From positions 16,765-80,764 of the IMG/VR virus record IMGVR_UViG_3300028591_000093: 64,000 nt of DNA. The stretch is one strand, 5' to 3'. Positions 1-52,618 of the stretch are shown piece by piece; the stretch's first letter is position 1; each line of letters begins with the position of its first letter. The position numbers and the translations under genes were made by a program. The DNA is from a virus (Duplodnaviria; Heunggongvirae; Uroviricota; Caudoviricetes). The notes beneath the pieces are model-generated. The model had not been told where the DNA came from. It saw nothing but the letters and a program-made list of their open reading frames with translations, and searched no databases.

Positions 1-99
1 CACTAGATAACCCATGCAAGTGGGTCATAGACCTAACTGTGCAGGTAGAACTTACATGTGTAAATGTAGCCATCTCTTTCTGTGCCCTCCTTCAAGACA

Positions 100-1722
100 T
101 CAATTCTCTTTGGGAACTTGCAACAGTAGAGCATTTCTACTAAACCACGAACTTGCTCTTCTAAACTGCTCATTTCTTTGTATCAATTGTTGTTTAGGAA
201 TTTTTCCAAATCTCTTATATCCATACTCATCTGTATACCAGCCTATCTGTTCTGTGGAAGCTTTGGGAGGTGCTTGTTGAATTGTCTTACCAATCATATC
301 TTCATTAGCAAGCATACACATACCAAAAGCTGCTACAATATCGAACTTTCTTTTGTTAGCATAAGAGTACCTAAGTAACTCATTAAGTAACTCAGGAAAT
401 TCAATATAACTACAGTAGTCTGTTATATAGTCATTGATGAGGTCTAATTGATGGTTAATAATATCATCTGTTGCAGGAGTACCATACTGATTAGGATTTG
501 CTTTCCTAATAGTAGGCATAGTAGCTCTAGGTCTTTTTAGCAATAAGTCCATGCACTTCTTTTCTTTAAAGTAAGTTACAAGACTTATCTTAGTAGCTTC
601 TATCAGTCCTTTGCAGTTATACATTCTCATCAGCTTAATAGCATTATCAAATGCAATTCTAATATCTCTAGGTCTGTCTTTATATATTGCTACAGGTTTT
701 GGCGGGTTTAACCCCATCATCCTTTTATATATAATAATACAGAATTCAGATACATCAGATTGACCTGAAGAAGTAGAAGTATCATTGTCAATAGAGTCAA
801 TACCTGCAACATACAGATTATATGGGATTTGCCCATTATCATCCTTAGTAGGTAACTCTACTATTCTAATCTTACTATGAGAATCATATTCAAACTCAGG
901 AGGAGCAAACCTATCAACTTGATGAGGGTCATTCTTCAAAGGTCTGAATCTTAAACTAATACCTTGTGGAGGGTCAATCAGTTTATGTATCTCAATATTA
1001 TTTAGTTGAGTAGAAAGAGCTTCTTTATCAAACTTGTTCTCACCTTCAAGAATAAGAGCTTCTTCAGGAGTAAAGCAGTACTCTGCTTTATACATCATTA
1101 AATCTTTAGGGGAGTTCTCCAAAAGAGCTCTTCTATCCATGTAGTACTTCTTAGCTCTTTCTTCATCAACAACTCCTCTATTATCATAGCCTATCTCACC
1201 TTTATCTTGCTCGCCAAACCACATGGTGTAAGCAGGAATAAAGTAACCAGTATAAGCTACTTCTTGCGCTTCATTATATCTATTTTTATAAGGAAGAACT
1301 TTATACTTTTTAGGCTCATAGAACATTTTGGTGAGGCCTTCGAGATTAGGGCCAGAGTCACCACCAGTTCCCCAAGCATATCTGATACCAAACTTAATAC
1401 CATTGATTTCTGTTAAAGCTTCTCCTTTAATCCATGAGGCAATAAGGTGTTTATTAGAACCTGCTTCTTCAAATAAAAGCTTGTCAGTTCTATCACCTCT
1501 GACCTTATCTGGTACATCTGCTACTTTACCTTCAATTTCTGACATCCATCCAGATTCATTTCTTTCCTCGTCTAGAACAGATGCTCTCTTAAAGTCAGCA
1601 GTATCAATTACCATTCTTTGATGGGCAAACATTCCTTTAGTCCTTGTATTAAGGAAGTTCAGTTGTGTCCATATCTTATCAAGCAACTTACTCACAAAGA
1701 AGTCATTTGGAGCAGTTGCCAT
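100..1722 (-). CDS. terL: terminase large subunit, C-terminal part (Walker B and motif III of the packaging ATPase plus RNase H-like nuclease domain)
   Basis: 540-aa ORF. DKVRGDRTDKLLFEEAGS...AWGTGGDSGP parallels T4 gp17 DAVRGNSFAMIYIDECAF...TTTPNG. LYVAGIDSIDND fits the nuclease hhhGhD Asp motif. No Walker A here; it lies in ORF 2024-2659. TGA stop. Confidence 0.6.
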   Translation of the reverse strand: MATAPNDFFVSKLLDKIWTQLNFLNTRTKGMFAHQRMVIDTADFKRASVLDEERNESGWMSEIEGKVADVPDKVRGDRTDKLLFEEAGSNKHLIASWIKGEALTEINGIKFGIRYAWGTGGDSGPNLEGLTKMFYEPKKYKVLPYKNRYNEAQEVAYTGYFIPAYTMWFGEQDKGEIGYDNRGVVDEERAKKYYMDRRALLENSPKDLMMYKAEYCFTPEEALILEGENKFDKEALSTQLNNIEIHKLIDPPQGISLRFRPLKNDPHQVDRFAPPEFEYDSHSKIRIVELPTKDDNGQIPYNLYVAGIDSIDNDTSTSSGQSDVSEFCIIIYKRMMGLNPPKPVAIYKDRPRDIRIAFDNAIKLMRMYNCKGLIEATKISLVTYFKEKKCMDLLLKRPRATMPTIRKANPNQYGTPATDDIINHQLDLINDYITDYCSYIEFPELLNELLRYSYANKRKFDIVAAFGMCMLANEDMIGKTIQQAPPKASTEQIGWYTDEYGYKRFGKIPKQQLIQRNEQFRRASSWFSRNALLLQVPKEN

Positions 1723-2023
1723 AACTCTAGTATTTTCAAAAGCTGTGTATAAATTGACTGATATTGAAGCACTAATTTCAGAAGCACCTCAATTTGTTAC
1801 CCTATAGGCTTTTTATCCCATAGCTCTTATAGTTTCCTATAAGTTCAGCATATATTTTCAGCCACTCAAAGGTTGGGCTGTCCAACACTCTTGGGAGAAT
1901 TATATTTATTCATCTCCTATGCGTTACACTACTTACTAGCCTTTCGCTATCTAGTAAGTTAGCTAGATGTTAGCATTTTCAGCCTTCTTCTATTTTGCTG
2001 GATTTATTACCCTAATGTTCCCA

Positions 2024-2659
2024 TTAAGGAGTGCAAGTCTTTACACCTCTGCTCTTGAAAGCAACAACATCTTGCTTCAATTTAGCAGCCAATTCCATGT
2101 AATGAAAATACTCATATTGTTTTGCAATAAATGTAGGAAAGGTCTCATTTCTACCAGTTGCAGCTCCTTTGATACCAACAACACTCTTCATTCTGTAGTA
2201 GTTCAACCAGAAGTAGTTATCACCAGTAATGTGATATTTACCAATGGTAAGACCATTCATACATCTATCTAATTCTCTATAACACAGGTCAGCAAACATT
2301 ACCGTTCCTGGGATAAGAGATGTATACTCCCCAGTTTCTTCATAAGTCCTAGCCATTTCAGTAAATGGCGTAGGGTCAAAGTCTAGACCTTGTGTAGCAC
2401 TAATAGGTCTATAACCAGTGAGTTCATAAGAAAGTTCTGGGTCAAAATACTCTATAGGGTCTCCTATATGTACATCCCAGTCATCCTCTTTCTCAACTTT
2501 CTTAGTTTCCTGAACAGTCTGCTATTCCTTTTTTATATCTTCCTGGGGGATGTCTAGAATAACAGCTCTTCTTTTCTCTCTTTTAGCATCAAGAGCAGCC
2601 GCCTCTTTAGACAACTGCTCTTTTAATGCTGTTTTTTCTTCAGGAGATAACTTACCCAT
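2024..2659 (-). CDS. terL: terminase large subunit, N-terminal ATPase fragment with a P-loop-like GIKGAATGR; one in-frame TAG at 2522-2524 read as sense
   Basis: Frame is open from the ATG at 2659 to the TAA at 2024-2026 apart from a single TAG. No alternative start lies downstream of the TAG before M at 2356. Distance to the P-loop (about 170 aa) matches T4 gp17. The ORF track shows only the post-TAG piece 2024-2356. TAATG overlap with the upstream gene. Confidence 0.5.
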
Positions 2660-3246
2660 TATCTCTTATCAAAGAATCCTGGAGTCCTACCCCCTCTTAA
2701 TCCAGTAGATTCTGATTGTTCAGTTTTAAACTTTTCTTCAGCTTCTCTCTTAGCATCAAAGAGTTTTGGTAATTTGATATAATCATCCATAATATCTTTA
2801 GATGTAGTGAGAAACTTACCAGTAACCTCATCTCTCTCAGAGAGGTCAAGATTTTTATATCTTGCTGTTAACTTATGAACTGCATCGTTCATTGCTGCTA
2901 ACAGAGGACCAAATAAAGAAGAACTATCTTGTAATTGGTTATATCTGTCAAATGCCGCTTTAAACAATGGGTCTTGTAACTCTTCTTTAGTAAGACCTGT
3001 CGAAGCTAATGCCATCTCATGTCTTTCTTGAGGAGTACTCTTATTACCTGGTGCTAACCAATCTATAGCAAGATATATGTATGTCAGTTCCTTATATGCC
3101 TTAAGTCTTTTCTTACCAGTAGGGTCTTCCTTACATTTATTTCTATCTACATCCCATAAATCTTTGAATTCCTTCACTAGTAAAATTTCAGGTTCATTAA
3201 GAGTTAAGGCATTGGACTTATTATCATATACAAAAAACTTAACCAT
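2659..3246 (-). CDS. hypothetical protein (position immediately upstream of terL; possible small terminase subunit)
   Basis: 195-aa ORF, charged and helical. Gene order only; no motif recognised. Confidence 0.35.
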   Translation of the reverse strand: MVKFFVYDNKSNALTLNEPEILLVKEFKDLWDVDRNKCKEDPTGKKRLKAYKELTYIYLAIDWLAPGNKSTPQERHEMALASTGLTKEELQDPLFKAAFDRYNQLQDSSSLFGPLLAAMNDAVHKLTARYKNLDLSERDEVTGKFLTTSKDIMDDYIKLPKLFDAKREAEEKFKTEQSESTGLRGGRTPGFFDKR

Positions 3247-3257
3247 ATAGTAAACAA

Positions 3258-3668
3258 TTAGTGTAAGACAGGCAGGCCAGTACAGCTATCTACTTCAATA
3301 AGCCTGCCTCCAACTCTCTTGAGCATACAAGGACATTTCTTCTTAGGTTTACCACCTTGTCTAAGTTTCTTATAATACTCAAGTTTCATACCACACTTAG
3401 CTTTTGCAACGGCTTGCTGTACAATCTGTACAATTTGTGCAGTAATGTCTTTAGGTTGTGCACCTTCAGCAGCTAACTTACTAACAGATTCTGCTGCTTC
3501 TTTTACACCGCCAGCTGTTTGAATAAAGGCTTGTGCAATCTCAGGAGCATCATTCTCAGAAAGACCACCATCAATCAGAATCTTAACAATTCCTTGCGCA
3601 AGTTCTTCCTCAGAAGGAGCTTGAGTTGCACCACCTTCTTTAAATTTCTGTCTATTAAAGTATTGCAT
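3258..3668 (-). CDS. hypothetical protein with Ala/Gln-rich N-terminus and C-terminal CG...CPC zinc-ribbon-like motif
   Basis: 136-aa ORF, TAA stop. Confidence 0.4.
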   Translation of the reverse strand: MQYFNRQKFKEGGATQAPSEEELAQGIVKILIDGGLSENDAPEIAQAFIQTAGGVKEAAESVSKLAAEGAQPKDITAQIVQIVQQAVAKAKCGMKLEYYKKLRQGGKPKKKCPCMLKRVGGRLIEVDSCTGLPVLH

Positions 3669-3680
3669 AGTTATAAAAAA

Positions 3681-3944
3681 TTAGTCTTCTCTTCCAGACT
3701 TAACAAGAACTAAATCCTTTGTGGAGAATAAATTCTCTTGGAAAGCTCCTTCAGAAGTAAACCAGAAACAACTGATTCCCTTCAAAGTAGAGATAGAATT
3801 ATCCTTCAATTTATAAAGATTCTTGTCAATCTTAGAAACAACCATAATTGGTCTATTAGGAATGTCCTGTCTCAATGTAACAACATCACCAGGAACAAAA
3901 TATACTTTCTCTTCCATATTATTATACATTAGGATTATTGTCAA
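3681..3944 (-). CDS. hypothetical protein (87 aa)
   Basis: ORF track. Its start overlaps the end of the groES-like gene. Confidence 0.35.
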   Translation of the reverse strand: MTIILMYNNMEEKVYFVPGDVVTLRQDIPNRPIMVVSKIDKNLYKLKDNSISTLKGISCFWFTSEGAFQENLFSTKDLVLVKSGRED

Positions 3945-4257
3945 CTAATAAGAGGTTTTGTTCTGCAACAACCATATATCCAGACTCAAAGAATACAGGT
4001 CTAGCTCCTCTCATATCAAATAAAACATTGTCACCTTTGTGGACAACTTCACATTTATTACCAACAGCAAGAACCTTGCCCCATTTAAAGGGTTGTTCCT
4101 TATAATCAAGCTGACCACTGTCAGGGTTCTCAAACTCACCACCTGTTATTTCAAATTCATCCTCAGCAGCTTTCTTCTCATAAGGATTGAATTCATAAGG
4201 GTCAACTAAAATGTTAGTGAACACTGGAATAAAATTTTCTGTCATATCATTAAGCAT
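3922..4257 (-). CDS. groS: GroES-like co-chaperonin (Cpn10) with expanded mobile loop
   Basis: IPVFTNILVDPYE then loop then WGKVLAVGNKCEVVHKGDNVLFD matches GroES IRPLHDRVIVKR...GEVLAVGNG...VKVGDIVIF. Lies directly upstream of the GroEL-like gene. Confidence 0.55.
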   Translation of the reverse strand: MLNDMTENFIPVFTNILVDPYEFNPYEKKAAEDEFEITGGEFENPDSGQLDYKEQPFKWGKVLAVGNKCEVVHKGDNVLFDMRGARPVFFESGYMVVAEQNLLLVDNNPNV

Positions 4258-5707
4258 TAAGAATTAAACAAGAGCATGTTAAAATAATAGAGGCTGTATT
4301 TACAGCATTCTCTAAAGAAGTCTTAACAACTTCATATGGGTCTATCACACCTTCATTATATAAGTCATTTACCCATTTTCTAGTTTTAAAGTTATAACCT
4401 TGCCAATCTTGTGGGCATGGAATAACTTGTTCATTAGGACCAAAACAGTTCTTATATAATATATAATAAGGAGTAGTCAATACTTCTCTCAAGTACTTCA
4501 ATTGACTACCTAAATTAGTAGAAGCATCAAAAAGTGCTGTTCCACCACCAGGAAGAACTCCTCCTCTTAAAGCGGCTCTAGTAGCACCTACAGCATCTTC
4601 TACTCTATCCAATCTTTCTTTAACTTCTATCTCAGAGTAACCACCTACATAAATAGTGGCAATGCCTGCTGTGAAGTTAGCAAGTCTCTTTCTCTGGAAT
4701 TCTAAGTCTCCTTCATCAAGATTACCTTTTTCTAAAAGTCCTTGAATTGCTGTTACTTTTTCAGATACAGCTTGTTCATTACTTTTATATCCTACAAAGG
4801 TACAAGTATCAGCAGTAGCTACAACTTTATCACAATAAAGTGTATCTCCAAGAATATCTCTAATATCAGAAAGCAGAATACTTCTCTGGATACCAAAGTT
4901 AGGAGCAACTACCATACAGGAGTCTAACTTATGTAAGTTATTTAAAAGATTTATTTTTATCTCAGAATCAAAATCTGGAGCAATAAGCAATAGAGCTTTT
5001 TTCTTTCTGAGAGCTTCATTAGCTACCTCAGCAATTTTGGTAATCTCACTAATCTTTGTATCTGAGATGTATATCATTACATTGTTAAGTACACAAGTGT
5101 TTTCAGCAGTATTTACAAATCTGGAATCAAAGTAACCATTGTCAAATTGAAAACCTTCAGAGAATTCAATACCATCTGAGTTAGTTTTAGATTTCTCAAA
5201 CTTAACAATTCCATTCTTGCCTACTTTCTTAAAAGCTTCAGCAACAAGTGCACCTATTTTAATATCGTTGTTTGCAGAAAGTGTAGCAACTTTAGTTAAG
5301 TCATCAAGAGTAATATCTCTTTTATGTTCTTTTAACCAATCTACAACTTTCTTGCAATCTTCTTGTAAATCTCTTTGTATCTCTATAGGATTTTCCTTAC
5401 TATTACAAAGACTATTTACAATCTTGTTAGAAAGAATGGTAGCAGTAGTGCTACCATCTCCAATATCATTAGAAGTTTTTCTTGAAATATCTCTAACTGC
5501 ATCTATACCCATTTGAACAAAAGGATTCTCATGAGTAACATAAGTTGCTACAGTACTACCATCTTTAGTAACATGTAAATGTCTGCCAAGCTTAATCATT
5601 ACATTCTTACCACTTGGACCATAAGTAGCAGCAACACAATTAGAAACTAAATTTACACCTTTAATTAAAGATTCTCTGCATTCTTCAGTAAATTGTACAT
5701 TTTCCAT
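4250..5707 (-). CDS. groL: GroEL-like chaperonin (Cpn60), shortened C-terminus
   Basis: 485 aa. ATYGPSGKNVMIKL...VTKDGSTVA...NDIGDGSTTATILS parallels GroEL TLGPKGRNVVL...ITKDGVSVA...NDAAGDGTTTATVLA. Confidence 0.75.
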   Translation of the reverse strand: MENVQFTEECRESLIKGVNLVSNCVAATYGPSGKNVMIKLGRHLHVTKDGSTVATYVTHENPFVQMGIDAVRDISRKTSNDIGDGSTTATILSNKIVNSLCNSKENPIEIQRDLQEDCKKVVDWLKEHKRDITLDDLTKVATLSANNDIKIGALVAEAFKKVGKNGIVKFEKSKTNSDGIEFSEGFQFDNGYFDSRFVNTAENTCVLNNVMIYISDTKISEITKIAEVANEALRKKKALLLIAPDFDSEIKINLLNNLHKLDSCMVVAPNFGIQRSILLSDIRDILGDTLYCDKVVATADTCTFVGYKSNEQAVSEKVTAIQGLLEKGNLDEGDLEFQRKRLANFTAGIATIYVGGYSEIEVKERLDRVEDAVGATRAALRGGVLPGGGTALFDASTNLGSQLKYLREVLTTPYYILYKNCFGPNEQVIPCPQDWQGYNFKTRKWVNDLYNEGVIDPYEVVKTSLENAVNTASIILTCSCLILNA

Positions 5708-8506: not shown

Positions 8507-8576
8507 ACCTAGAATACCCCACTAATTAAAAAAATCTAACACTGTACTAATGTTCATCTTTGTTCTTATTTTCTAG

Positions 8577-8648
8577 AGCACCTTTCCAGAATCGAACTGA
8601 AATCATCGGGTTACAAAGCCGAGGTAATAACCATTATACTAAAAGTGC
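8577..8648 (-). tRNA. tRNA-Thr(TGT)
   Basis: Manual cloverleaf. Acceptor GCACTTT/AAGGTGC, T-loop TTCGATT, anticodon loop TTTGTAA. One C-C mismatch closes the anticodon stem. Confidence 0.65.
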
Positions 8649-8652
8649 AAAT

Positions 8653-8727
8653 GCTGGCAGTACTGGACTCGAACCAGTAATCCCCTGATTAACAGTCAGG
8701 TGCAGTAACCATTTTGCTAACTACCAG
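8653..8727 (-). tRNA. tRNA-Asn(GTT)
   Basis: Acceptor CTGGTAG/CTGCCAG, anticodon arm CCTGA-CTGTTAA-TCAGG, T-loop TTCGAGT. Confidence 0.75.
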
Positions 8728-8733
8728 TAAAAG

Positions 8734-8806
8734 TAGTCTGGGATGGAGTTGAACCACCGACCTTCATCTTATCAGGATGACAATCTAACCACTGATATAC
8801 CAGACC
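8734..8806 (-). tRNA. tRNA-Ile(GAT)
   Basis: Acceptor GGTCTGG/CCAGACT, anticodon arm TCATC-CTGATAA-GATGA, T-loop TTCAACT. Confidence 0.75.
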
Positions 8807-8812
8807 AAAAAG

Positions 8813-8886
<74 letters not shown>

Positions 8887-8893
8887 ATATAAG

Positions 8894-8967
8894 ACACACT
8901 GATGAGATTTGAACTCATGAATAGCAGTTTTGCAGACTGCCCCCTTAGACCACTTGGGTACAGTGTG
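8894..8967 (-). tRNA. tRNA-Cys(GCA)
   Basis: Acceptor CACACTG/CAGTGTG, anticodon arm GCAGT-CTGCAAA-ACTGC, T-loop TTCAAAT. Confidence 0.8.
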
Positions 8968-8971
8968 AGAG

Positions 8972-9066
8972 TGGGAAGAGAGGGACTTGAACCCCCCTAC
9001 TGCAAAGGCCAATACAACAATTTGTTAAAGCAGGTAAGTTTTACAGACTTGTGTTGTTATCTTCCC
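8972..9066 (-). tRNA. atypical 95-nt tRNA-like gene (long-arm type II or intron-containing; anticodon unresolved, possibly TAA)
   Basis: Perfect 7-bp acceptor GGGAAGA/TCTTCCC and canonical T-arm GGGGG-TTCAAGT-CCCTC. D-loop lacks GG. There are 46 nt between the D-arm and T-arm that do not fold into a standard anticodon arm. Confidence 0.4.
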
Positions 9067-9071
9067 AATTG

Positions 9072-9144
9072 TCTAGATAGAGAGGCTCGAACTCCCGCTC
9101 ACTTGCTCCCAAAGCAAGAATGTTACCCATTACACCATATCTAG
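9072..9144 (-). tRNA. tRNA-Pro(TGG)
   Basis: Acceptor CTAGATA/TATCTAG, anticodon arm CTTGC-TTTGGGA-GCAAG, T-loop TTCGAGC. Confidence 0.75.
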
Positions 9145-9149
9145 AGTTG

Positions 9150-9221
9150 TGCAGCAGAAAGGATTCAAACCCTCCACTCCTGGTTGGAGGCCAGGTATGT
9201 TGTCACTAACACCACTACTGC
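9150..9221 (-). tRNA. tRNA-Gly(TCC)
   Basis: Acceptor GCAGTAG/CTGCTGC with one GU pair, anticodon arm CCTGG-CCTCCAA-CCAGG, T-loop TTTGAAT. Confidence 0.7.
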
Positions 9222-9226
9222 ATTTG

Positions 9227-9298
9227 TGCAGATAACCAGAATCGAACTGACATTTCCAGGCTGGCAGTCTGGAGCACTAACCGTTGTGCTATATCTGC
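9227..9298 (-). tRNA. tRNA-Gly(GCC)
   Basis: Perfect acceptor GCAGATA/TATCTGC, D-arm GCAC-AACGGTTA-GTGC, anticodon loop CTGCCAG, T-loop TTCGATT. Confidence 0.65.
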
Positions 9299-9302
9299 AT
9301 TG

Positions 9303-9374
9303 TGGAATCATAGGGAATCGAACCCTAATGAATAGCTTGCAAAGCTACCATAATAACCATTATATGATGACCCC
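9303..9374 (-). tRNA. tRNA-Ala(TGC)
   Basis: Acceptor GGGGTCA/TGATTCC with GU pairs, anticodon arm GTAGC-TTTGCAA-GCTAT, T-arm TAGGG-TTCGATT-CCCTA. Confidence 0.75.
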
Positions 9375-9378
9375 AAAG

Positions 9379-9451
9379 TATCCCCATCCTGATTTGAACA
9401 GGACCCTGCACCTTGAAAGAGTGCTGACCTAACCAGCTAGTCTATGAGGAC
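9379..9451 (-). tRNA. tRNA-Glu(TTC)
   Basis: Acceptor GTCCTCA/TGGGGAT, D-arm GACT-AGCTGGTTA-GGTC, anticodon arm GCACT-CTTTCAA-GGTGC, T-loop TTCAAAT. Confidence 0.8.
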
Positions 9452-9456
9452 ATAAG

Positions 9457-9528
9457 TTGCAGGGGCAAGAATCGAACTTGCGACCGTCAGCTTATGAAAC
9501 TGCTTAGCTACCACTGCTACACCCTGCA
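9457..9528 (-). tRNA. tRNA-Met(CAT); could be initiator, elongator or Ile2-type
   Basis: Acceptor TGCAGGG/CCCTGCA, D-arm TAGC-AGTGGTA-GCTA, anticodon loop TTCATAA, T-arm GCAAG-TTCGATT-CTTGC. Confidence 0.7.
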
Positions 9529-13856: not shown

Positions 13857-13872
13857 ATATTGTATAATTTAG

Positions 13873-13959
13873 TCGCCCCTGAGGGACTCGAACCCTCACT
13901 TCTTCCAACAGAAGGACATGGTTTTAGAGACCAGCACACTACCATTATGTTAAGGGGCA
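13873..13959 (-). tRNA. suppressor tRNA, anticodon CTA (reads UAG), type II with long variable arm, discriminator A
   Basis: Acceptor TGCCCCT/AGGGGCG, D-arm ACAT-AATGGTA-GTGT, anticodon arm CTGGT-CTCTAAA-ACCAT, variable arm CTTCT-GTTGGA-AGAAG, T-arm GAGGG-TTCGAGT-CCCTC. Confidence 0.7.
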
Positions 13960-14157: not shown

Positions 14158-14291
14158 AACTTCTTAACTTTAATTTATCATTCTTAATTTCTGTAAGAGC
14201 TTGCGCTATCTTGAAGTAAGCATCATCTCTTACCTTATCTCCTAGTAAGTGTTGATAACAGTATAGTATACAACTTTCTAGGAATTCTATT

Positions 14292-14447
14292 TCATTTAAC
14301 TGATTCATATTTATCTATCATTGTTGCCATTCCACTTAATCCTATAAAGAACCAAGTTGGAACCATTACTAAGCAAATAATTGCAATAATAAAAAATACT
14401 AAACCTGCATACCAGGCATAAGCTAAATCCTTAAAATACTTTCTCAT
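14292..14447 (-). CDS. small membrane protein (51 aa)
   Basis: MRKYFKDLAYAWYAGLVFFIIAIICLVMVPTWFFIGL. ATGA overlap with the stop of gene 14444-14674. Confidence 0.4.
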   Translation of the reverse strand: MRKYFKDLAYAWYAGLVFFIIAIICLVMVPTWFFIGLSGMATMIDKYESVK

Positions 14448-14674
14448 TTCTTTCTACTTGCTACATTTAAAATATAATCTATTGCTTCAGCTGCATAAGC
14501 AAACTTAACTCTTAATACAATATGAGTAAGAGAACTTACTATAATTGTACCATTAACATGGTTAAATACTACTTTAGGCCATCCTTTCTGAGAATATACC
14601 TGGCTGAACTCTTTATCTTCTCTAATATACCCAAACATTATGAGTAATTCCTTAAGATTATTTACATCATTCAT
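14444..14674 (-). CDS. hypothetical protein (76 aa)
   Basis: ORF track, TGA stop. Confidence 0.4.
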   Translation of the reverse strand: MNDVNNLKELLIMFGYIREDKEFSQVYSQKGWPKVVFNHVNGTIIVSSLTHIVLRVKFAYAAEAIDYILNVASRKK

Positions 14675-14793
14675 AACACATTAGTTTAATAATTATGATG
14701 CAAAATTACTATAAAATTAAGCAATAAAAAACCCAAACTATTAAAAATAAATTTAGCCCCCTCATTGTGTAATGAGAGAGCTAAATTTTTTGG

Positions 14794-19087: not shown

Positions 19088-19312
19088 ACATATAGGTACA
19101 GGTTATTGGTTTAATCTGTACTTTCTAGGTTTGTTCATGATGGTTATTTAAGGTGCAAGGGTGTTTCTGTCTGTGAAGATAGAGCACCCAAGATTGGTTT
19201 TTGAGGTCTCATCTCAGTGTAATGGAATGGGCTGGTTGGCACTTGGCTGGAATCTCTTTTTTTATTTTCTCTATTAAGTTTAGTTCTATAAGTTTAGGTA
19301 AGTATAGTTAGA

Positions 19313-19420
19313 GTAAAGAAATTTTAGACAACCAGTAAAAAATTTTTAGGTAAGCAGTATTATTTTTTTAGGTAACCAGTAAAGAAATTTTAGGTGGTAA
19401 AGAAACTAGTAAAGTTTATT
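19313..19420 (+). repeat. array of 4-5 direct repeats CCAGTAAAGAAATTTTAGG (iteron-like) upstream of the winged-helix gene
   Basis: Repeat units at about 19316, 19336, 19356, 19377 and 19397. Confidence 0.5.
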
Positions 19421-20984: not shown

Positions 20985-21229
20985 TGGCAACTGGAAGTAC
21001 TCTGCTTTGTAGACATGGCAGAATAAACCAGAAAGTTGCTATGCCTGTTAATCCTATTGGGTATATGTCTACTATGCCCAAAGGTACAGTTCTTGAACAT
21101 TGTGTTAAGACTGGCAGGCCTGGAAGATTTGCTTATAAGAAGACTTATTGGTCTTCTATGGGTAATGGAAAGGTTATTAGAACTCAAGAATATTCAAATT
21201 GTGAATAGTCATGTTTAGTCTTGGTGTAA
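20984..21229 (+). CDS. hypothetical Cys-containing protein; the ORF ends at TAG 21206-21208 and may read through 7 codons to TAA
   Basis: ORF track 20984-21208, extended. Confidence 0.3.
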
Positions 21230-21468
21230 TCTTGTGCATTATTGCCTTTCTTCTCTTAATCTTCTTATGTATTGTTTTGGGTTGTACTCATTATAATACT
21301 ATTATAGAGATTGGAGATTACAAGGTATTTTTCCATCTTATTGGTACAAGTATTTTCAGTACTAATGGTGCTAAAGTAATTCACCTCTCTTATTGGGATA
21401 TGATATTACTTTTGGTAGCTTTGGTATCATGTTCTATATTTGGACCTATGATTCTAGTTCTAGTTTAA
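21211..21468 (+). CDS. small membrane protein (two TM helices)
   Basis: MFSLGVILCIIAFLLLIFLCIVLG...MILLLVALVSCSIFGPMILVLV. Confidence 0.4.
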   Translation: MFSLGVILCIIAFLLLIFLCIVLGCTHYNTIIEIGDYKVFFHLIGTSIFSTNGAKVIHLSYWDMILLLVALVSCSIFGPMILVLV

Positions 21469-21734
21469 CTAGAGCTTGTTAGGGGTGTGTCTATTGGTTT
21501 AGGCACACCTTTCTTTTTTCATTCAATGTAGCCATTTTGATTGAACTTGCTTGCTTGTGATAAGTAGGCAAGGACTTACACTTGATAGGAGATTTTGGAT
21601 TAGACTATCCGAGGCTGTTTTTATCCTATTATTGAACTTACAAAACAGTTGATTAGTTTAGGTTTTGGCTGCCCTAACAGACTGGAAACCGACATCCTTT
21701 AAGATTTAGGGTATTATAGGATGTATAAAAACAG

Positions 21735-21804
21735 AGTATATTAGCTCAGTTGGTAGAGCACTACAGAGATGTAGCGGTCGGAGGTTCAAGTCCTTCATAT
21801 ACTC
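21735..21804 (+). ncRNA. tRNA-like RNA with canonical acceptor, D- and T-arms but a truncated anticodon arm (5-bp stem, 4-nt loop); pseudo-tRNA or Y-RNA-like
   Basis: AGTATAT/ATATACT acceptor, GCTC-AGTTGGTA-GAGC, CTACA-GAGA-TGTAG, GGAGG-TTCAAGT-CCTTC. Only 70 nt long. Confidence 0.45.
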
Positions 21805-21888
21805 CTTTGGTGAGAGTGGGGTTAGACTCACAAACAAAACAGATATGTGCTCACAGAATCTATATTACTAAAAAGTATATAAACTACA

Positions 21889-23817: not shown

Positions 23818-24168
23818 GTGCAGTTGTGGCCGTTGGCACCATTAGAGTTGAAGAAGCCAAGACTCTTTGCTCATGTTTTCTTGGTTGAAAATGTGAGCTC
23901 TATGAAAACAGACTATGAAATTTTTAAGGAATTATCTCTCATACAGAAAACTTCTTTCTTAAAGAAGCATCCTGAATATGATAAAAGTTATTATGTCTCT
24001 TATGCTTTTAACAGAGATGGTTTTATGGGATTTGGTAGTACTACTTTAAGTGGCACTATACCTCTTCTACAGTATGGACCATCAAAAGGACATTTAGCAG
24101 AATATTTTGAGAAAGAGTTAAGAAAAAACTATTCTCATGTTGTCATAGTCAACTTTTGGGAGATATAA
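23818..24168 (+). CDS. hypothetical protein (116 aa)
   Basis: ORF track. Confidence 0.35.
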   Translation: MQLWPLAPLELKKPRLFAHVFLVENVSSMKTDYEIFKELSLIQKTSFLKKHPEYDKSYYVSYAFNRDGFMGFGSTTLSGTIPLLQYGPSKGHLAEYFEKELRKNYSHVVIVNFWEI

Positions 24169-25739
24169 CTATCCCTTCAGAACAATAGAAGGGTGTCAAG
24201 GAAGCTGAGGTTGTATGCTAGCTTAAAGCTAAAGCAGCATTCTAAGGTCGAGGTTGTGGATGAAAGTGTAGGTTTCCTTTTACTAAAAACTACTTGAGAG
24301 AGTTGCCAGGTTCCCCTCTCTCAGAATTACCTTACTGTCTGGAGTTAAGGTATGGGACAGTTTGAGTAGTGACTGTCACCTTTATTTGTAGTTCTCTACA
24401 AATCTTCTTAAGGTTGTCCAACAATGAGGACAATCTGACATGTGGGAAAGACCACAGCCTTATACAAAGTTTTGTTTGGAAGGTAATTCTTAGTTGCAAA
24501 TAAGGATTATTGAGTAGGACATTATGGAGTAAATGTTACTAGGGTGACTAGTATATAATGACTAGTGTTTGTAGCATTAACTAGTAAAAACATCTCTAAT
24601 TTAGCTCAAGGAAAGTAAATAGAGATATGAGGTATGAGTTTTGCTGAGTTTCTAGAGCTCAAAGTTTATAAGCCTCTTTACCATAACAGTTTACAGTCTG
24701 TTTAAAACTGTCCCTTTTCTCAATTAAAGTCCTATGAATATCCATTGTAGACTCTAATCTATATTATGGTAATGAAGGAAGATGTTTGGGTAAGAACCAA
24801 CTTCATAGGCAATTAGTCAAGATACTTCTAGTCACAATTCTTGACACAAATCTACAAAGATGTGAGTAGGTTTTTATTTAAATTAAAAATTCAGACCTTT
24901 TTATTATAGTTAAAGGAAAATAACTTTAAAAACCATTAAAAAGTAAGACATGCATGGTTAACTCCCTCCTGTCCACGAGAGATTGTTTACTTCTTATAAG
25001 AATACTAGTAAAACTTATAAGTTTCTTTATCGTGGAGTCAATAGTTGAAAGATACAACTATAAAAATATATAAGGATATTGCAGAGTGATTACTAGATTA
25101 GTCAAGACTGTCATGAAGGCCAAGGTGGTGAGAATCCTCAATAATAGAGTCTTATATCCTTATTAACCAAGTTGAAGGACATACAACTTAAATAAACCCC
25201 TTGACAGTTGGTCGTTAGTAAATTGTACAAAGTGTGTAGAGGAATAGTGGAAAAAAGACACCAAGAGAGATGAAATTCTAGGCTCTCAATTTTTTATAAC
25301 TTTAATTTTGTCTATCAGTTAAAACTATGACAACCCTATGATTGTTGTGGGATAGTAAATGGGAACTTATATAACCAAGCAAATTAAAGTTTTAATTTTA
25401 TTAGATTAGTTTTATCTTTCTGTAATTTGTAGGTTGGGCGACCTTAAAAACAGATGGCTGATAGGAAAGACTATCAATTTTGTAATCCGAGGTAGGAAAT
25501 TGTAGTAATACAAGAAGGTTAGGGATATAAAAATCCTTTACTAAAAGGATAATATATCATTAGGAAAGAAGTTGGGAATTGCGCAACTGTGTAGGATTAC
25601 ATTATTTTTACTTAAAAATTATATCTTCTCAAAGAATAAATAGGAGTAATTGCCCTATTCATGTAGCAAACCACTATTACACGCTTTGAAAACAGTATAG
25701 GAGAGATGTGGGAATCTCCTATACTTGAAGATATTATAC

Positions 25740-25815
25740 TCTCCATTAGCTCAGTTGGTCCAGTAGCAATACACTCATAATGTAGAGGTCCCTGGTTCAA
25801 GTCCAGGATGGAGAA
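25740..25815 (+). tRNA. tRNA-Met(CAT) with enlarged D-loop
   Basis: Acceptor TCTCCAT/ATGGAGA, anticodon arm ATACA-CTCATAA-TGTAG, T-arm CCTGG-TTCAAGT-CCAGG. Confidence 0.65.
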
Positions 25816-26008
25816 CTATCAACATAACAGAAACAAGGCTGAGATACTAATAGGGAAAAGTGATAAGGCTAACAGAAACATTGTTGATATTTACAGTGGC
25901 AGAGTGGAACGCATAAGCTTAACTAATCATTAGGCAAAAACCATCAGAGGCTCATAACCTCTGGATAGCAGGTTGGACTCCTGTTGCCGCAACTAAAAAC
26001 AGAAACAA

Positions 26009-26266
26009 ATGAAAGCAATTAAAGATAAAATTGTAATGAGTGATGCATATTATTTTGTGCTAGCTTATTTGAATGCAACAAATTTTGCTCCTGTTCAAGC
26101 AAAAGGTTTTTGTAAAATTGACCAAAGAACAGGACATCCAATATTTAGAATGAATATGCTTGATTATGAAACATTCAAAGAATTGTTTTATGATGGTATG
26201 CATTGGATGTTAAGCAAATCACAAGAGTTGACATTAGAAAATATTGACAAATACAATCTTGAATAA
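26009..26266 (+). CDS. hypothetical protein (85 aa)
   Basis: ORF track, TAA stop. Confidence 0.4.
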   Translation: MKAIKDKIVMSDAYYFVLAYLNATNFAPVQAKGFCKIDQRTGHPIFRMNMLDYETFKELFYDGMHWMLSKSQELTLENIDKYNLE

Positions 26267-26267
26267 T

Positions 26268-27083
26268 ATGGAAATCAACAAACAGTTATTTGAAGATGTA
26301 CTTGCTGGTAAATTAGAGGGGAATTTTGTACTTAAAAATGGATTTAGAGTTAATAGTAGTAGACTCTGTAAAAAAGAAGGAAAAAGAGCTATTTATTGTT
26401 ATTGGTTAAAAGGATTTTCTCCTTTATATACAGTAAATGGTATTCCTAACTCTATATTTGCTAGAAACTATACTATTGTAGATTTTATACCCAAATATCG
26501 AACAATAGATTTGGAAATGCTAGAATATTGCAGAAAAGATTTTGAGTTTTCACAAATGTTATCAAAAGCAATAAATAATATGAATACACTTGAAATTGAG
26601 ATTCCAGAAGGAAAAGAGATTGACTGGAAAGAATCTGAAAAACAAAATAGGATTATTCTGAAAGATAAGCAGTTGACTTATAAGGATATTTGTGAGAAAT
26701 TGTTTAAGTATAAAGAATTTTTCTTTACAAACAATACTGGAGTGATTCAAAGTAGTTCTCCTACTTCCAAAGAATATTTAGCTAATGCAGCAAATAATTC
26801 AACTTCCTATCATCAACTTGAGTGTATTCTTGCAAAAAATATGCTTGCTAATGTTGCAAAGTATCTAAATAATGGATGGAAGCCATCATATACCAGTGAA
26901 GGTCACTATGATGCCTGGATTTTATTCACAACTCCAGATAAAAATTACATAGGTACATTTAAAATAAATAATTGTAGTCAAAATAGTAATGTAATATTCA
27001 AGTCCTTTGAACTTGCACAACAAGCAATAAAAATCCTTGGAGAGGAAACTGTTAAACTTGCATTAGAACCTTTAGGAATATGA
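26268..27083 (+). CDS. hypothetical protein, member of a three-gene paralogous family (with 27343-27819 and 48265-48783)
   Basis: Shares LEIEIPEGKEIDWKESEKQNRIIL with 27343, and LANVAKYLNNGWKP / KSFELAQQAIKILGEETVKLALEPLGI with 48265. Confidence 0.45.
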   Translation: MEINKQLFEDVLAGKLEGNFVLKNGFRVNSSRLCKKEGKRAIYCYWLKGFSPLYTVNGIPNSIFARNYTIVDFIPKYRTIDLEMLEYCRKDFEFSQMLSKAINNMNTLEIEIPEGKEIDWKESEKQNRIILKDKQLTYKDICEKLFKYKEFFFTNNTGVIQSSSPTSKEYLANAANNSTSYHQLECILAKNMLANVAKYLNNGWKPSYTSEGHYDAWILFTTPDKNYIGTFKINNCSQNSNVIFKSFELAQQAIKILGEETVKLALEPLGI

Positions 27084-34397: not shown

Positions 34398-34771
34398 GGG
34401 CCTATTTGGTTTTGACAGCATTATATGATTAATGGGAACATGCAAAGAGAGTACTGCTCTAAATTACGGTACAAAAAATAAATGCTAGCAGAAGAAGACC
34501 TGTTAGATTGGTTGCCTAAGCTTAGGCTTACTTAACTGTAAACTAGCTTATTATGGCATAACCTGGGTAATTATACCTGGAAACAGAAAATAATTGACAT
34601 TGTGGAAAGACACATTTAACTTTCTTCAAAGTATAAATGAAGTGGTGGAGTGGCTAGTTGCCAAACCAATTAGCCCCTGTGGGTAAAGTAACCACATTAA
34701 AAAGAACTAAGCATGTAAAGTTTCCTATTAGTTGATATTGTTGGACCTGGGTTCGACTCCCAGTAGGTCCA
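34398..34771 (+). ncRNA. ssrA: tmRNA (SsrA), about 374 nt. Predicted tag reading frame GCT AGC AGA AGA AGA CCT GTT AGA TTG GTT GCC TAA, giving (A)SRRRPVRLVA
   Basis: 5' GGGCCTA pairs with 3' TAGGTCC plus discriminator A next to the T-arm CTGGG-TTCGACT-CCCAG. The segment AACTAAGCATGTA matches the conserved E. coli tmRNA segment CUAAGCAUGUAG. Resume codon lies at nt 87, preceded by AAAAAATAAAT as in E. coli AAAAAAUAGUC. Confidence 0.6.
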
Positions 34772-35307
34772 CTGGTCCTTGAGGTTTTTGTTTCTCTGTT
34801 AGTTTTTCTACGATTTTTCCTAGCAGAGTTTTTGTTTTTCCTCAAGAGTAGGTCTCTCCATCCCTATATAAAAAAGATGGTATCTATATAGACATAAGTC
34901 CACAATTAAGGAGGTCATTGTAGTGATACAGAATAGGCAAAAGCTATTTGTCAGAGAGCCTTGCTCACTAGGTTAAGACAAACTACATAATAAGCTAGAA
35001 TAAAAGTATGGAGACTCAGAGCACCTAGTATGGCAGTCTATAACCATAGGTATTTATATACTTTATTTTACTGTGTTTGGGCAAACACTTGAAACGGCAT
35101 CCTAGTTTGGAGGTTTAAAAGTTAAAACCTTCTGCGAGCATAGGCATCCCTTCACTGGGAAAGTTATGCTCAACATCTGGTGTTAAGTAGCACCTAAAAT
35201 ATACTTCTTATGTGATTCAATGGTTAATATTGTGTTTTTGTTTGCGCGGTGACTCTAGGCAAGATGGGTTGTGAAACTAGTCTTGCCACCTTCTTTTTCT
35301 AAAGTTT

Positions 35308-50274: not shown

Positions 50275-50679
50275 ATGAATCAAGAACAAGTATTACAACT
50301 TGCTAATTTGCAGTTAGCACTTGAACAAAGAGTTGAAGAAATCAGAGATATTCTTGGTGGATGTAAAAAGTATGAGGCTGCTAATTATGTAAAGGGTGAC
50401 GCTTGTACTCTTTATGTATATAAGAATCAAAATAACACACTTGATATAAATGTAACAGGTAGTGGTTATGGTAATTGTTGCATGGGAGAATGTGAGCATT
50501 TTGAACTTTGGTTTCCTGCTGAATATCTTTGGATGTCAAAAGAAGAACTTATCTCAACTATAGAAAAAATTAAGGAGGAGGAAAAACAATCTGAACTTCT
50601 TCTTGAGAAAAAGAGAAAAGAGTGTATTGAAGCAAATGAAAGAGCTCAATATGAGAAGTTAAAAGCAAAATATGGCTAA
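50275..50679 (+). CDS. hypothetical protein (134 aa)
   Basis: ORF track. Confidence 0.4.
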   Translation: MNQEQVLQLANLQLALEQRVEEIRDILGGCKKYEAANYVKGDACTLYVYKNQNNTLDINVTGSGYGNCCMGECEHFELWFPAEYLWMSKEELISTIEKIKEEEKQSELLLEKKRKECIEANERAQYEKLKAKYG

Positions 50680-50929
50680 TATGATATACAGATTACTATT
50701 TTTATGGTTACTTTTACATTTGATTGCTATTTTACATGAAGTAGCTCAGTATAGTAGAAGTAAAAAGTGGGGAATTAAATGGTGGATGGACAACCATTTA
50801 GGAGGTCTTTCTGGAGCTCTTTTAGCTATAGATGTAATTGGTTTAGGTATATTAGCAATTCTTCTTATAATAGCTTTTGTTGCTGAAGGATTAGAAGGCA
50901 TTGTCAAAATATTTAGATTTATATTCTAA
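50672..50929 (+). CDS. membrane protein (85 aa)
   Basis: ORF track. TM helices. Confidence 0.4.
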   Translation: MANMIYRLLFLWLLLHLIAILHEVAQYSRSKKWGIKWWMDNHLGGLSGALLAIDVIGLGILAILLIIAFVAEGLEGIVKIFRFIF

Positions 50930-51041
50930 TGAGTAGAATTTTTGATGTATGCTTTCCAAAATGTCCATTGTTTTATATGTGTGAGAATTTCCATATACAT
51001 AACAGTTTAAATCAATGTGCAGGATTTAAGCTTAGAAAAGA

Positions 51042-51446
51042 ATGGAAAAGAATTTACAAGAATTGATTATGGAACATGAACCTCATGTATCATTAGATAC
51101 TGCAAACCTTCTTAAACAGGCAGGATTTGATTGGAATTGTCAAGGCTTCTATAAAGAAAATGTCTTCTATAGTGGTTCTATAGAATACTGTTCTAATTAT
51201 CATTATCAAGAGTCTGTTTATGCAAAAGCTCCAACTCTCGATGTAGCACAAAGATGGTTAAGAGAAGTACATCATTTACATATAACTATCTTTTCATCAT
51301 CACAAGAGTCTTGGATGTTTAGAATTACCAAACAACATCAAAGTTTAGAAGATGGTGTTTATGGAGAAGATTTTTATACTTATGAAGAAGCTCAAGAAGC
51401 AAGTATAAAGAAAGCACTTGAAATAATTTTGGAAAAAGGAGAATAA
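51042..51446 (+). CDS. hypothetical protein, paralog of 52605-53012
   Basis: VSLDTANLLKQAGF...APTLDVAQRWLREVHH parallels VSLETAKMLKEAGF...APTLATAQRWLQQVHH. Confidence 0.4.
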   Translation: MEKNLQELIMEHEPHVSLDTANLLKQAGFDWNCQGFYKENVFYSGSIEYCSNYHYQESVYAKAPTLDVAQRWLREVHHLHITIFSSSQESWMFRITKQHQSLEDGVYGEDFYTYEEAQEASIKKALEIILEKGE

Positions 51447-51448
51447 TT

Positions 51449-51685
51449 ATGTCAGAATTAGGATTAGATATGCTTGATGGTTGTCTAAAAGCATTTGCAT
51501 GGATAGCTGGAATTTGCATAATCACTATGATATTAGGATTATGTATTTGGGACTTAGAAGTTCCTAAAGACCATTGTATTAAGTGTGGTAGGGTTATCTG
51601 CAATGAAAACTATTGTCCTAATTGTGGTATGTCAACAGATAGTGTTGATACATATAATTATTGGAATAATCCAAAGAGAAAATGA
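51449..51685 (+). CDS. small membrane protein with CxxC...CPNC zinc-ribbon
   Basis: ORF track. Confidence 0.4.
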   Translation: MSELGLDMLDGCLKAFAWIAGICIITMILGLCIWDLEVPKDHCIKCGRVICNENYCPNCGMSTDSVDTYNYWNNPKRK

Positions 51686-51689
51686 AGTT

Positions 51690-51830
51690 ATGACAAGCAA
51701 TCAAAAATTTGGGAGACTTGTTGCTAACCTAATGTGGAATACTGGATGGGAAAAATGTCCATTTATTTTAAACATGGAGCAGACAGTGGCATGTTGGAGT
51801 AGATGGAAAGAATTAAAGAAAGGACAATAA
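51690..51830 (+). CDS. small hypothetical protein (46 aa)
   Basis: Internal ATG of ORF 51585-51830, placed after the upstream TGA. Confidence 0.3.
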   Translation: MTSNQKFGRLVANLMWNTGWEKCPFILNMEQTVACWSRWKELKKGQ

Positions 51831-51833
51831 GTT

Positions 51834-51980
51834 ATGATAGCTAAGGAATTAGCAGAAATTTTATTGCAAAATCCAGACAAAGAAGTTCATTTTGCAACTG
51901 GTGATGGTGGATGTTCTGGTGCACTTCCAGTAGAAACAGTCGAAATATTTAATAATAATATTTTATTAGATTGTAAATAA
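51834..51980 (+). CDS. small hypothetical protein (48 aa)
   Basis: MIAKELAEILLQNPDKEVHFATGDGGCSGALPVETVEIFNNNILLDCK. Fills the gap between called ORFs. Confidence 0.3.
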   Translation: MIAKELAEILLQNPDKEVHFATGDGGCSGALPVETVEIFNNNILLDCK

Positions 51981-51982
51981 TC

Positions 51983-52192
51983 ATGGAAGAGACAATTACT
52001 GCTTGGATAGCAAGAGATAAAGTTGAGAATAGAATATACTTATATCTTTACAAACCACATAAAAATCCTAAGGGATGGTGGTATTTAGAAAATGACAAAG
52101 ATAAGGTAATTGATTCTAATTTATTTCCTGAAGTCAAATGGGAAGATAAAGAACCTACTAAAGTGGAATTGACCATTAAAATTTGTGAATAA
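51983..52192 (+). CDS. hypothetical protein (69 aa)
   Basis: ORF track. Confidence 0.35.
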   Translation: MEETITAWIARDKVENRIYLYLYKPHKNPKGWWYLENDKDKVIDSNLFPEVKWEDKEPTKVELTIKICE

Positions 52193-52194
52193 AC

Positions 52195-52404
52195 ATGAAA
52201 ACTTTATTTGAAATTTTACCAGATTTTCTTAATGGTAAGAAAATTCGTAGAGTATCTTGGAATCAAAATCTTTGGCTTGAAACTACAGATGGTACATTAA
52301 CTAGGTTAATGATTAAAGAAGATTCTGGTATTAGACTGTTACATATAGGTGAAGGATTTTCTCTTGATGATGTTAAAGCAAAAGATTGGGAAATAGTACA
52401 ATAA
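52195..52404 (+). CDS. hypothetical protein (69 aa)
   Basis: ORF track. Confidence 0.35.
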   Translation: MKTLFEILPDFLNGKKIRRVSWNQNLWLETTDGTLTRLMIKEDSGIRLLHIGEGFSLDDVKAKDWEIVQ

Positions 52405-52420
52405 AAATAACAGTTAAAAT

Positions 52421-52618
52421 TTGTGGGTAATTATGACTAAGAAAGAATTTATATTAGCCATAAATGAGGAATATGGTACTCCTGGATTTAGCAGTATAAT
52501 CTGGCACCCTGAATGTAAAAAATGGAGAGCTAGGAAAGTTATAGGTGGTAATAATGTTTGTATGTGGCTTACAACAGCATATAAACATAAAATACAGAAA
52601 GAAAATGGTATGGGATAA
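52421..52618 (+). CDS. hypothetical protein (65 aa)
   Basis: ORF track. Confidence 0.35.
   Translation: MWVIMTKKEFILAINEEYGTPGFSSIIWHPECKKWRARKVIGGNNVCMWLTTAYKHKIQKENGMG

Follow-up and report, generated by a model that had tools for sequence, protein, structure and literature searches.

Group I introns in the core genes of phages are textbook elements, familiar from the classical IA2 introns of T4 (td and nrdB), SPO1, and Twort. In the large terminase subunit gene, terL, such introns have been described from Bacillus phages (SIOphi and other Bastillevirinae), with splicing shown experimentally (PMC11878797). Among crAss-like phages, the Delta and Zeta groups have been reported to contain group I introns and inteins at a density without precedent, along with TAG or TGA recoding and suppressor transfer RNAs (tRNAs); the introns in that study were located via their endonuclease domains, and TerL of the Delta group typically contained inteins (Yutin et al. 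2021, PMC7886860). Here we describe an insert of 253 nucleotides (nt) in terL of a crAss-like phage, which we read, with a probability of a little over nine in ten, as a group I intron lacking an open reading frame (ORF). It lies in a 64,000-nt stretch (positions 16,765 to 80,764) of IMG/VR virus record IMGVR_UViG_3300028591_000093; we refer to this whole stretch as the window and use its coordinates throughout, listing positions on the minus strand, where terL is encoded, in descending order where the 5′ to 3′ direction matters.

Like the loci of the crAss-like phages of PMC7886860, this one has a suppressor tRNA and TAG recoding alongside an intron-split core gene, and it belongs to the same virus assemblage; introns of the same family are present in the crAss-like phages cr6_1, cr7_1, and cr131_1. 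Unlike the introns reported in that study, the window intron has no ORF and would therefore escape an endonuclease-domain screen. With the Bacillus-phage terL introns and the classical IA2 introns it shares residence in a gene of packaging or DNA metabolism, insertion at a highly conserved catalytic motif, and what appears to be an IA-like core with an extra helix between P7 and P3′, whereas those introns mostly carry an endonuclease ORF (32 of 45; mean 802 nt); our BLAST list held no DNA similarity to the phages that contain them. Introns of Staphylococcus (Sextaecvirus SA2/6ec and ROSA-like), Clostridium/Clostridioides, and Leptolyngbya phages have 68–87% nt identity to it over P3–P9.1 and form the same helices with compensatory changes, and the SA2 copy also lies within terL. 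They differ in host phylum and in insertion site and gene (tape measure, dUTPase region, ATPase), and many have HNH or LAGLIDADG ORFs.

The literature already contains group I introns from phage terL and a high density of introns in crAss-like phages; the window intron is an additional, ORF-less case, and it leaves the current understanding of group I introns unchanged. For annotation, its recognition gives one intact 768-residue TerL in place of two fragments, with exact exon borders that aid correct gene calling and phylogenetic work on TerL in this crAss-like lineage. Neither endonuclease-domain screens nor routine Rfam searches pick up short ORF-less group I introns, and the intron load of crAss-like and other phages has for this reason probably been underestimated. 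Moreover, the paired occupied and empty alleles described below, together with an ORF-bearing relative at the same site, constitute a case from nature in which an intron has been gained or lost within a Walker A motif.

Exons and borders of the probable intron in terL

A preliminary description of the window, made from its sequence without database searches, had noted that one minus-strand ORF ends at TAA 2026–2024 and the next starts at ATG 1722, with TAA, TGA, and TAG in all frames between them, and had proposed that a structured noncoding insert, a candidate group I intron, interrupts a single terL. These points have held, the last of them through an Rfam match, covariation, and intron-less alleles. 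The borders, however, required revision (Table 1). The insert had been placed at 1723–2025 and given as 301 nt, although that range counts 303 nt; comparison with two intron-less relatives, contigs L007 and L130, puts it instead at 2042..1790. The N-terminal piece does not begin at ATG 2356, its frame continuing upstream through a TAG to ATG 2659. The splice first suggested (ACU CCU U|...G|UU AUG GCA, producing TCTPF-MATAPND) gives way to GGU GU|A...UUG|A GGU GCU, producing SRGV-GASEIS, so that the 5′ and 3′ sites move upstream by 17 nt and ~65 nt, respectively.

Excision of the 253 nt yields a 768-codon ORF, its length divisible by three, that reads ...AFKSRGV-GASEISAS... at the join. The split divides a codon halfway along the Walker A-like motif K-S-R-G-V-G-A-S: exon 1 ends with ...AFKSRG(V), and exon 2 begins at the third position of the Val codon, continues with GASEISAS..., and holds Walker B (LLFEE) and the nuclease domain. 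The junction GGUGU(2043)|A(2042)...UUG(1790)|A(1789)GGUGCU keeps the frame and follows the group I rule of U before the intron and G as its last base. Exon 1 is open from ATG 2659 through one in-frame TAG (2524–2522, codon 46), and the frame of exon 2 is open for 22 codons 5′ of ATG 1722, back to TGA 1791–1789; there is no frameshift and no TAA or TGA in either exon. Those 22 codons (GASEISASISVNLYTAFENTRV) are kept in TerL homologues, whereas the terminal residues of the first ORF, KTCTP, are not. The two ORFs as originally delimited had been said to align along T4 gp17 with no residues missing; in fact the intron would contribute six residues to them (KTCTP and the F made by the proposed join) and the 22 conserved ones would be left out, and the T4 gp17 alignment was not reproduced by sequence, Pfam having no family for either ORF fragment and a PDB sequence search with spliced TerL as query giving no match.

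The two ORFs are parts of one TerL: PHROG 6681, ‘terminase large subunit’, covers residues 100–718 of the spliced protein as a single match (E=3e-75) that includes the junction. By tblastn this protein has 27–45% identity to Crassvirales TerLs over 70–89% of its length, such that homology to crAss-like TerL extends along the whole protein. Its closest relatives are Crassvirales and ‘Bacteriophage sp.’ gut contigs, and the TerL of the nearest GenBank phage record is only 45% identical.

Two other accounts of the insert were rejected. A junction within the flanking GAGGTG repeat (giving SRG-ASE) is ruled out by the homologues, which retain R-x-x-G-x-S, and an intein is ruled out because the insert has TAA and TGA stops whichever frame is read.

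Empty and occupied sites in relatives

Two relatives have the same gene with the site empty. In the IMG/VR contig L007, TerL has 89% amino acid (aa) identity to that of the window, and the two flanks match at 83% and 86% nt identity. Its collinearity with the window extends to 2043 and resumes at 1788, a single A common to both lying in between; exactly the 253 nt are absent. Contig L130 (Ga0326511_10018849), at 80–90% nt identity, is collinear over 5.1 kilobases (kb) upstream and lacks exactly window 2042–1790. Exon 1 is thus collinear with both up to 2043. When metagenome contigs were scanned for the 29-nt sequence predicted for the ligated exons, AAGAGCAGAGGTGT|AGGTGCTTCTGAAAT, the sole find was a verbatim copy in L130. 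Precise excision accordingly restores the conserved ORF with a junction that is identical to L130 and agrees with L007 and with L004, whose uninterrupted TerL reads KARGVGFSEIAAS across the site. The corresponding segment is ALKARGVGFSEIAAS in MT835470.1, and in more distant uninterrupted crAss-like TerLs it is KARGVGFSEI, KARRKGFS (cr55_1), or KSRQRGYS (cr131_1). A spliced transcript of the window gene would be expected to contain AAGAGCAGAGGTGT|AGGTGCTTCTG, and the predicted peptides spanning the junction of spliced TerL are SRGVGASEISASISVNLYTAFENTR and (R)GVGASEISASISVNLYTAFENTR. Exact searches of IMG/VR found neither the spliced junction nor the exon 1–intron junction.

The site is occupied in a further phage besides that of the window. 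MT835539.1 (L005), whose TerL is 41% identical, has an insert of ~1066 nt at the identical position (KARGA|GYSEI), interrupting after its second base the codon that precedes Gly in K-A/S-R-G-x|G. This insert, intron 1 of that gene, belongs to the same family as the window intron (nhmmer E=3.6e-20), and the two share homologous P1 and P2 helices; P1 of the insert, GGGGC/GCCCU, is compensatory relative to the GGUGU/GCACU of the window. It differs in its length, in its last exon base (C, where the window has U), and in having an ORF remnant, 113 aa of a LAGLIDADG-type endonuclease (phrog_4645, E=2e-15) placed after P4/P5. Further downstream, the same terL is split by another intron of the family, which has an endonuclease ORF of 310 aa, and in cr131_1 a family member occupies a third terL position. 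The site is therefore occupied in the window and MT835539.1 and empty in L007 and L130.

As side observations on MT835539.1, the final exon base of intron 1 makes a C-G pair in P1 instead of a U-G wobble, and the two same-family introns of its terL, at 1938–3005 and 3439–4543, each have a LAGLIDADG-type ORF.

Core structure and covariation

Helices were drawn from the window sequence on the group I scheme (Table 1), and their pairs were then counted in a MAFFT alignment of 37 non-redundant family members, each running unbroken from P3 to the 3′ end. Over these 37 members, 91.9% of cells are paired, as compared to 33.9–43.0% when the 3′ partners are slid by one to three columns, and the covariation score is 0.58, as compared to 0.06–0.13 for the slid partners; the observed values were reached in none of 500 shuffles. 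Both sides are altered in 44 of 54 pairs. Pairing is complete (100%) in P7, where 15 of the 37 sequences have switched from A-U to G-C, and in P7.1 (4/5 pairs altered on both sides), and it is nearly so in P6/P6a (99.5%; 10/10 pairs altered on both sides, eight of them in P6a and two in P6), P3 (97.7%; 5/6), P8 (95.5%; 5/5), and P4–P5 (93.1%). The lower counts for P9/P9.1 (65–78%) arise because MAFFT misplaces indels, and all 7 of the 7 P9.1 pairs are altered on both sides. P3 and P7 cross, forming the group I pseudoknot, and the locus thus has a conserved, covarying P3–P8 core of the group I kind.

Table 1. Exons, intron, predicted intron helices, and selected other genes of the window
Feature	Position	Strand	Description
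terL exon 1	2043..2659	minus	ATG 2659 to U2043; 205 codons + 2 nt
terL exon 2	100..1789	minus	A1789 to TGA 102–100
Probable group I intron	1790..2042	minus	253 nt, no ORF, IA-like; first base A2042, last base G1790
P1	2030..2047	minus	Exon GGUGU (2047–2043) with internal guide GCACU (2034–2030); loop AAAGACUU
P2	2010..2029	minus	Hairpin CCUUAAUG-GGAA-CAUUAGGG, 8 base pairs (bp), GNRA loop
P3 domain	1881..2002	minus	P3 = UCCAGC 2002–1997 with GUUGGA 1886–1881
P4	1992–1987/1969–1964	minus	Within P3 domain
P5	1984–1982/1974–1972	minus	Within P3 domain
P6	1962–1961/1930–1929	minus	Within P3 domain
P6a	1958–1951/1939–1932	minus	8-bp hairpin CUUACUAG/CUAGUAAG
P7	1848..1922	minus	GCAUA 1922–1918 with UAUGC 1852–1848; pseudoknot helix
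P7.1	1894..1917	minus	GGAGA/UCUCC between P7 and P3′; 14-nt loop UGAAUAAAUAUAAU
P8	1859..1880	minus	Hairpin CAGCC...GGCUG
P9	1843–1826	minus	CUUAUAG-GAAA-CUAUAAG
P9.1	1823–1802	minus	CUAUGGG...CCUAUAG
Amber-suppressor tRNA, anticodon CUA	13872..13959	minus	ARAGORN; Rfam tRNA 51.2 bits
Cpn60/GroEL-family chaperonin gene	4250–5707	minus	Pfam PF00118, E=4e-36; just upstream of terL block
Transfer-messenger RNA (tmRNA) gene	34398–34774	plus	Rfam RF00023, 93.2 bits, E=5e-35

At the 5′ end, P1 has the last exon base in the wobble pair U2043-G2034 at the splice site, as in group I introns, and the Rfam alignment puts P1 here too. The P2 stems of relatives differ in sequence, yet every one is capped by a GNRA loop (GAAA, GGAA, or GUGA). 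The P3 helix encloses P4, P5, P6, P6a, the 5′ strand of P7, and P7.1. An 8-bp hairpin capped by a GAAA tetraloop had been part of the preliminary description: the stem is present, as P6a, but it has no GNRA tetraloop, its GAAA lying within an 11-nt loop (AUAGCGAAAGG) whose consensus across sampled members is AUWNCGAAAGG. GNRA tetraloops sit on P2 (GGAA, 2021–2018) and P9 (GAAA, 1836–1833).

The G-C and C-G pairs of P7, where the Rfam consensus is GACUA/UAGUC, are invariant or nearly so, which fits its presumed role as the guanosine-binding helix. The P7.1 loop is invariant in set A2, an invariance that is partly built in because the A2 members were retrieved by a pattern including this 14-mer; it is also invariant in the five A1 sequences, which were found by BLAST and so independently of the pattern. 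An extra helix between P7 and P3′ is a trait of subgroup IA, and here it consists of one covarying hairpin, P7.1, no second helix being found in that interval; on this ground the architecture appears IA-like. Beyond P9.1, the tail GGUAACAAAUUG ends with G1790, which adjoins exon 2, and most A2 members have a G where flank conservation ends (judged by eye from the alignment, uncounted). Stops of all three kinds, TAA, TGA, and TAG, in every frame of the intron leave it with no endonuclease of its own.

Of 93 columns with a conservation of 90% or more among the other 36 members, the window copy keeps 88, and four of the five deviating columns amount to two compensatory pair swaps in P4. Against the nhmmer family profile it scores 155.9 bits (E=3.5e-47 over 2004–1791), compared to 154–184 bits for other members, and the RNA fold z-score is −3.2. 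A search with intron models, which the preliminary description had suggested as a check, gave a match below the gathering score: with a 291-nt query, Rfam RF00028 (Intron_gpI) aligned over model positions 1–253 at E=1.2e-7. The fold z-score and the E-values of the Rfam and profile matches all lie beyond chance expectation. Taken together, the conserved columns, the profile score, the intact exons, and the PHROG match argue for a working intron in a working gene.

Proposed splicing and alternative explanations

We propose that the terL pre-mRNA would fold into P1–P2, a P3–P8 domain with the P3/P7 pseudoknot, P7.1, P9, and P9.1. Exogenous guanosine would attack 3′ of U2043, the U-G wobble being held by the guide GCACU, and the freed 3′-OH of exon 1 would then attack after the terminal G1790, joining GGUGU to AGGUGCU. 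Translation of the mature mRNA would give the single 768-residue TerL, with the TAG at codon 46 read, most likely as Gln, by the tRNA(CUA) of the phage, while unspliced RNA would give only a 211-residue fragment with no complete ATPase. A P10 helix may also form, since ACUU (2038–2035) can pair with the first bases of exon 2, AGGU (1789–1786).

The sequences themselves show borders placed to within 1 nt, a conserved and covarying core, a restored ORF, and empty sites; splicing, whether autocatalytic or factor-assisted, is our inference. Against the intron stand the following points. P10 would have only 4 bp, one of them a wobble; P5 has only 3 bp, and P4 contains an A-A mismatch. The RF00028 score, 35.2 bits, is below the gathering score of 50, and an Rfam E-value search of window 1–4000 returned no intron match, a miss due to speed filters, given that the 291-nt search of 1770–2060 recovers RF00028. 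The border retains a 1-nt ambiguity since A2042 and A1789 are the same base; only the terminal-G rule settles it, and the insert is taken as 2042..1790 on that rule. Finally, no second independent assembly with both intron junctions was found, and a 100% identical IMG/VR contig, L008 (IMGVR_UViG_3300024345_000685), has its position 1 at window 1789, the first base of exon 2. On two of these points a qualification is due: the gathering score is one model's threshold and not a structural criterion, the whole family being under-scored (34.1 and 21.8 bits for relatives), and the contig break at exon 2 may reflect presence/absence polymorphism of the intron in the sampled population. As a further observation, RF00028 scores of family members are 22–35 bits, all below 50.

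The preliminary description had kept as its alternative two separately translated TerL pieces, which we consider very improbable. Under it, an N-terminal piece ending at TAA 2024 and a C-terminal piece starting from ATG 1722, or from an upstream start, would assemble in trans. The two ORFs do have a stop and a start of their own, and relatives are sometimes annotated so, as with the two ‘terminase large subunit’ coding sequences (CDSs) in Staphylococcus phage SA2. However, a codon of the Walker A-like motif is itself cut by the break (mid KSRGV|GAS), and ATG 1722 lies 22 conserved codons inside exon 2, such that the C piece would lack those residues while the N piece would end in five intron-encoded ones; moreover, the spacer is a full covarying group I core, and the gene is uninterrupted in close relatives. 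Translational bypassing, a hop like that in T4 gene 60 between the GAGGUG repeats at 2049–2044 and 1790–1785, can be all but dismissed. It would make use of a 6-nt direct repeat, GAGGTG, that flanks the insert in the same frame, but a hop from GGU to GGU would produce SRG-ASE and lose the Val-Gly of all homologues, there is no stop codon after the take-off codon, and the repeat is accounted for by the exon sequence GGTGT|AGGTG plus the terminal G. The 253 nt would also be ~5 times longer than any bypass known to us.

The insert might instead be the relic of a decayed, splicing-dead intron, making terL a pseudogene in a defective or mis-assembled genome. The missing endonuclease ORF (lost or never had), the P4 mismatch, the short P5, and the Rfam score below gathering all suit such a relic, yet the copy has kept 88 of 93 conserved positions with four of five changes compensatory, its profile score is within the range of other members, and its exons are intact; TerL is, besides, essential for tailed phages. 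We accordingly give this reading as little credence as separate translation. Less credible still is an assembly artefact in which an intron copy from elsewhere was misjoined into terL. The identical contig that starts at the first base of exon 2, and the occurrence of the exon 1–intron junction in no other IMG/VR assembly, would fit a misjoin. The window, though, has a single copy of the family in its 64 kb, and so no repeat to misjoin; the insertion is nucleotide-precise and conforms to the U/G rules, and its P1 guide is complementary to exon 1 itself; this site also carries an intron in a related phage; and a contig break at an intron border is what intron polymorphism would be expected to cause.

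The ORF-less group I intron that we favor is best seen as a form of a mobile intron, whose same-site relative in MT835539.1 has a LAGLIDADG-type ORF. Occupied sites, empty sites, and an ORF-bearing relative at the same site are together the picture of a classical homing intron that lost, or never had, its endonuclease. The ORF-less form may spread with the help of an endonuclease supplied in trans, or by recombination at co-infection.

A wider family of phage introns

A BLASTN search with 2.7 kb of the terL region against 50,697 phage records found 49 records that match the insert alone, never the exons, at 68–87% identity. They come from Staphylococcus, Clostridium/Clostridioides, crAss-like (cr6_1, cr7_1, and cr131_1), Leptolyngbya, Alicyclobacillus, and Arcanobacterium phages, and the matches typically lie beside HNH or LAGLIDADG endonuclease genes, or inside a split terL. 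A degenerate 27-nt pattern drawn from the best-conserved block retrieved at least 120 stretches from IMG/VR. The family has 54–62% mean column identity, and the 14-nt P7.1 and 11-nt P6a loops are kept in the sampled members, in part because of how these were fetched; its hosts belong to Bacillota, Bacteroidota, and Cyanobacteria. Within the 64-kb window, the terL copy was the single match of the nhmmer family profile. The ORF-poor regions 24100–26300 and 50600–53650 gave no intron in Rfam E-value searches, and a gathering-score Rfam search of the whole window gave only tRNAs and a tmRNA.

Because members of the family score below the Rfam threshold, relatives are annotated as split or truncated terL. 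We tentatively suggest, as a possibility with the odds somewhat against it, that these introns form a distinct, very widespread, unusually sequence-conserved IA-like clade of phage introns lying systematically below the Rfam threshold, whose ORF-less members spread via endonucleases provided in trans by same-site relatives. In that case, many of the phage core genes now listed as ‘split’ or truncated in the databases would be mis-annotated carriers of this clade.

Two records show how such genes are currently rendered. In cr131_1 (L002, NC_055902.1), at 470–3467, the terL CDS contains seven standard stops, and a TerL-homologous segment, 3168–3467, follows the intron. In SA2 (L001, MH356730.1), at 2386–5228, terL is annotated as two CDSs with a ‘hypothetical protein’ between them.

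TAG recoding and suppressor tRNA

The window encodes an amber-suppressor tRNA with anticodon CUA (Table 1), which translation through the TAG of terL exon 1 would require. The terL of L007 has an in-frame TAG at codon 45, in essentially the same place as codon 46 of the window gene, and its other TAG codons align with Gln in the window. Given this tRNA and the TAG/Gln alignment with L007, the TAG in terL exon 1 is almost certainly read as sense, and the pattern points to TAG-to-Gln recoding in late genes. The suppressor tRNA is 88 nt, has a long variable arm, and is labeled ‘Pyl’ by ARAGORN.

Other features of the window

The tmRNA gene (Table 1) has a tag peptide predicted by ARAGORN as ASRRRPVRLVA, unlike the common bacterial tag ANDENYALAA. 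In all, 23 tRNA genes are called in the 64 kb, with a tight array of 10–11 at 8576–9528 on the minus strand; one call, at 21735–21805, has an odd two-base anticodon. The chaperonin gene is followed by a 111-aa ORF (3922–4257, minus strand) with no Pfam match, whose position and size suggest a candidate GroES-like co-chaperonin.

A 2-kb stretch at 24169–26231 has no frame of at least 90 codons, even with TAG as sense; it contains a tRNA-Met (25740–25816) and a weak tRNA-like match (25895–25992), and it gave no Rfam intron match. Further ORF-poor gaps lie at 14168–14793, 21133–21882, 51831–52499, and 53013–53576. At 19312–19395, in a noncoding gap near the switch from minus to plus gene orientation, a 22-nt tandem repeat of 3.8 copies (AGTAAAAAATTTTTAGGTAACC) could be a regulatory or origin-type element.

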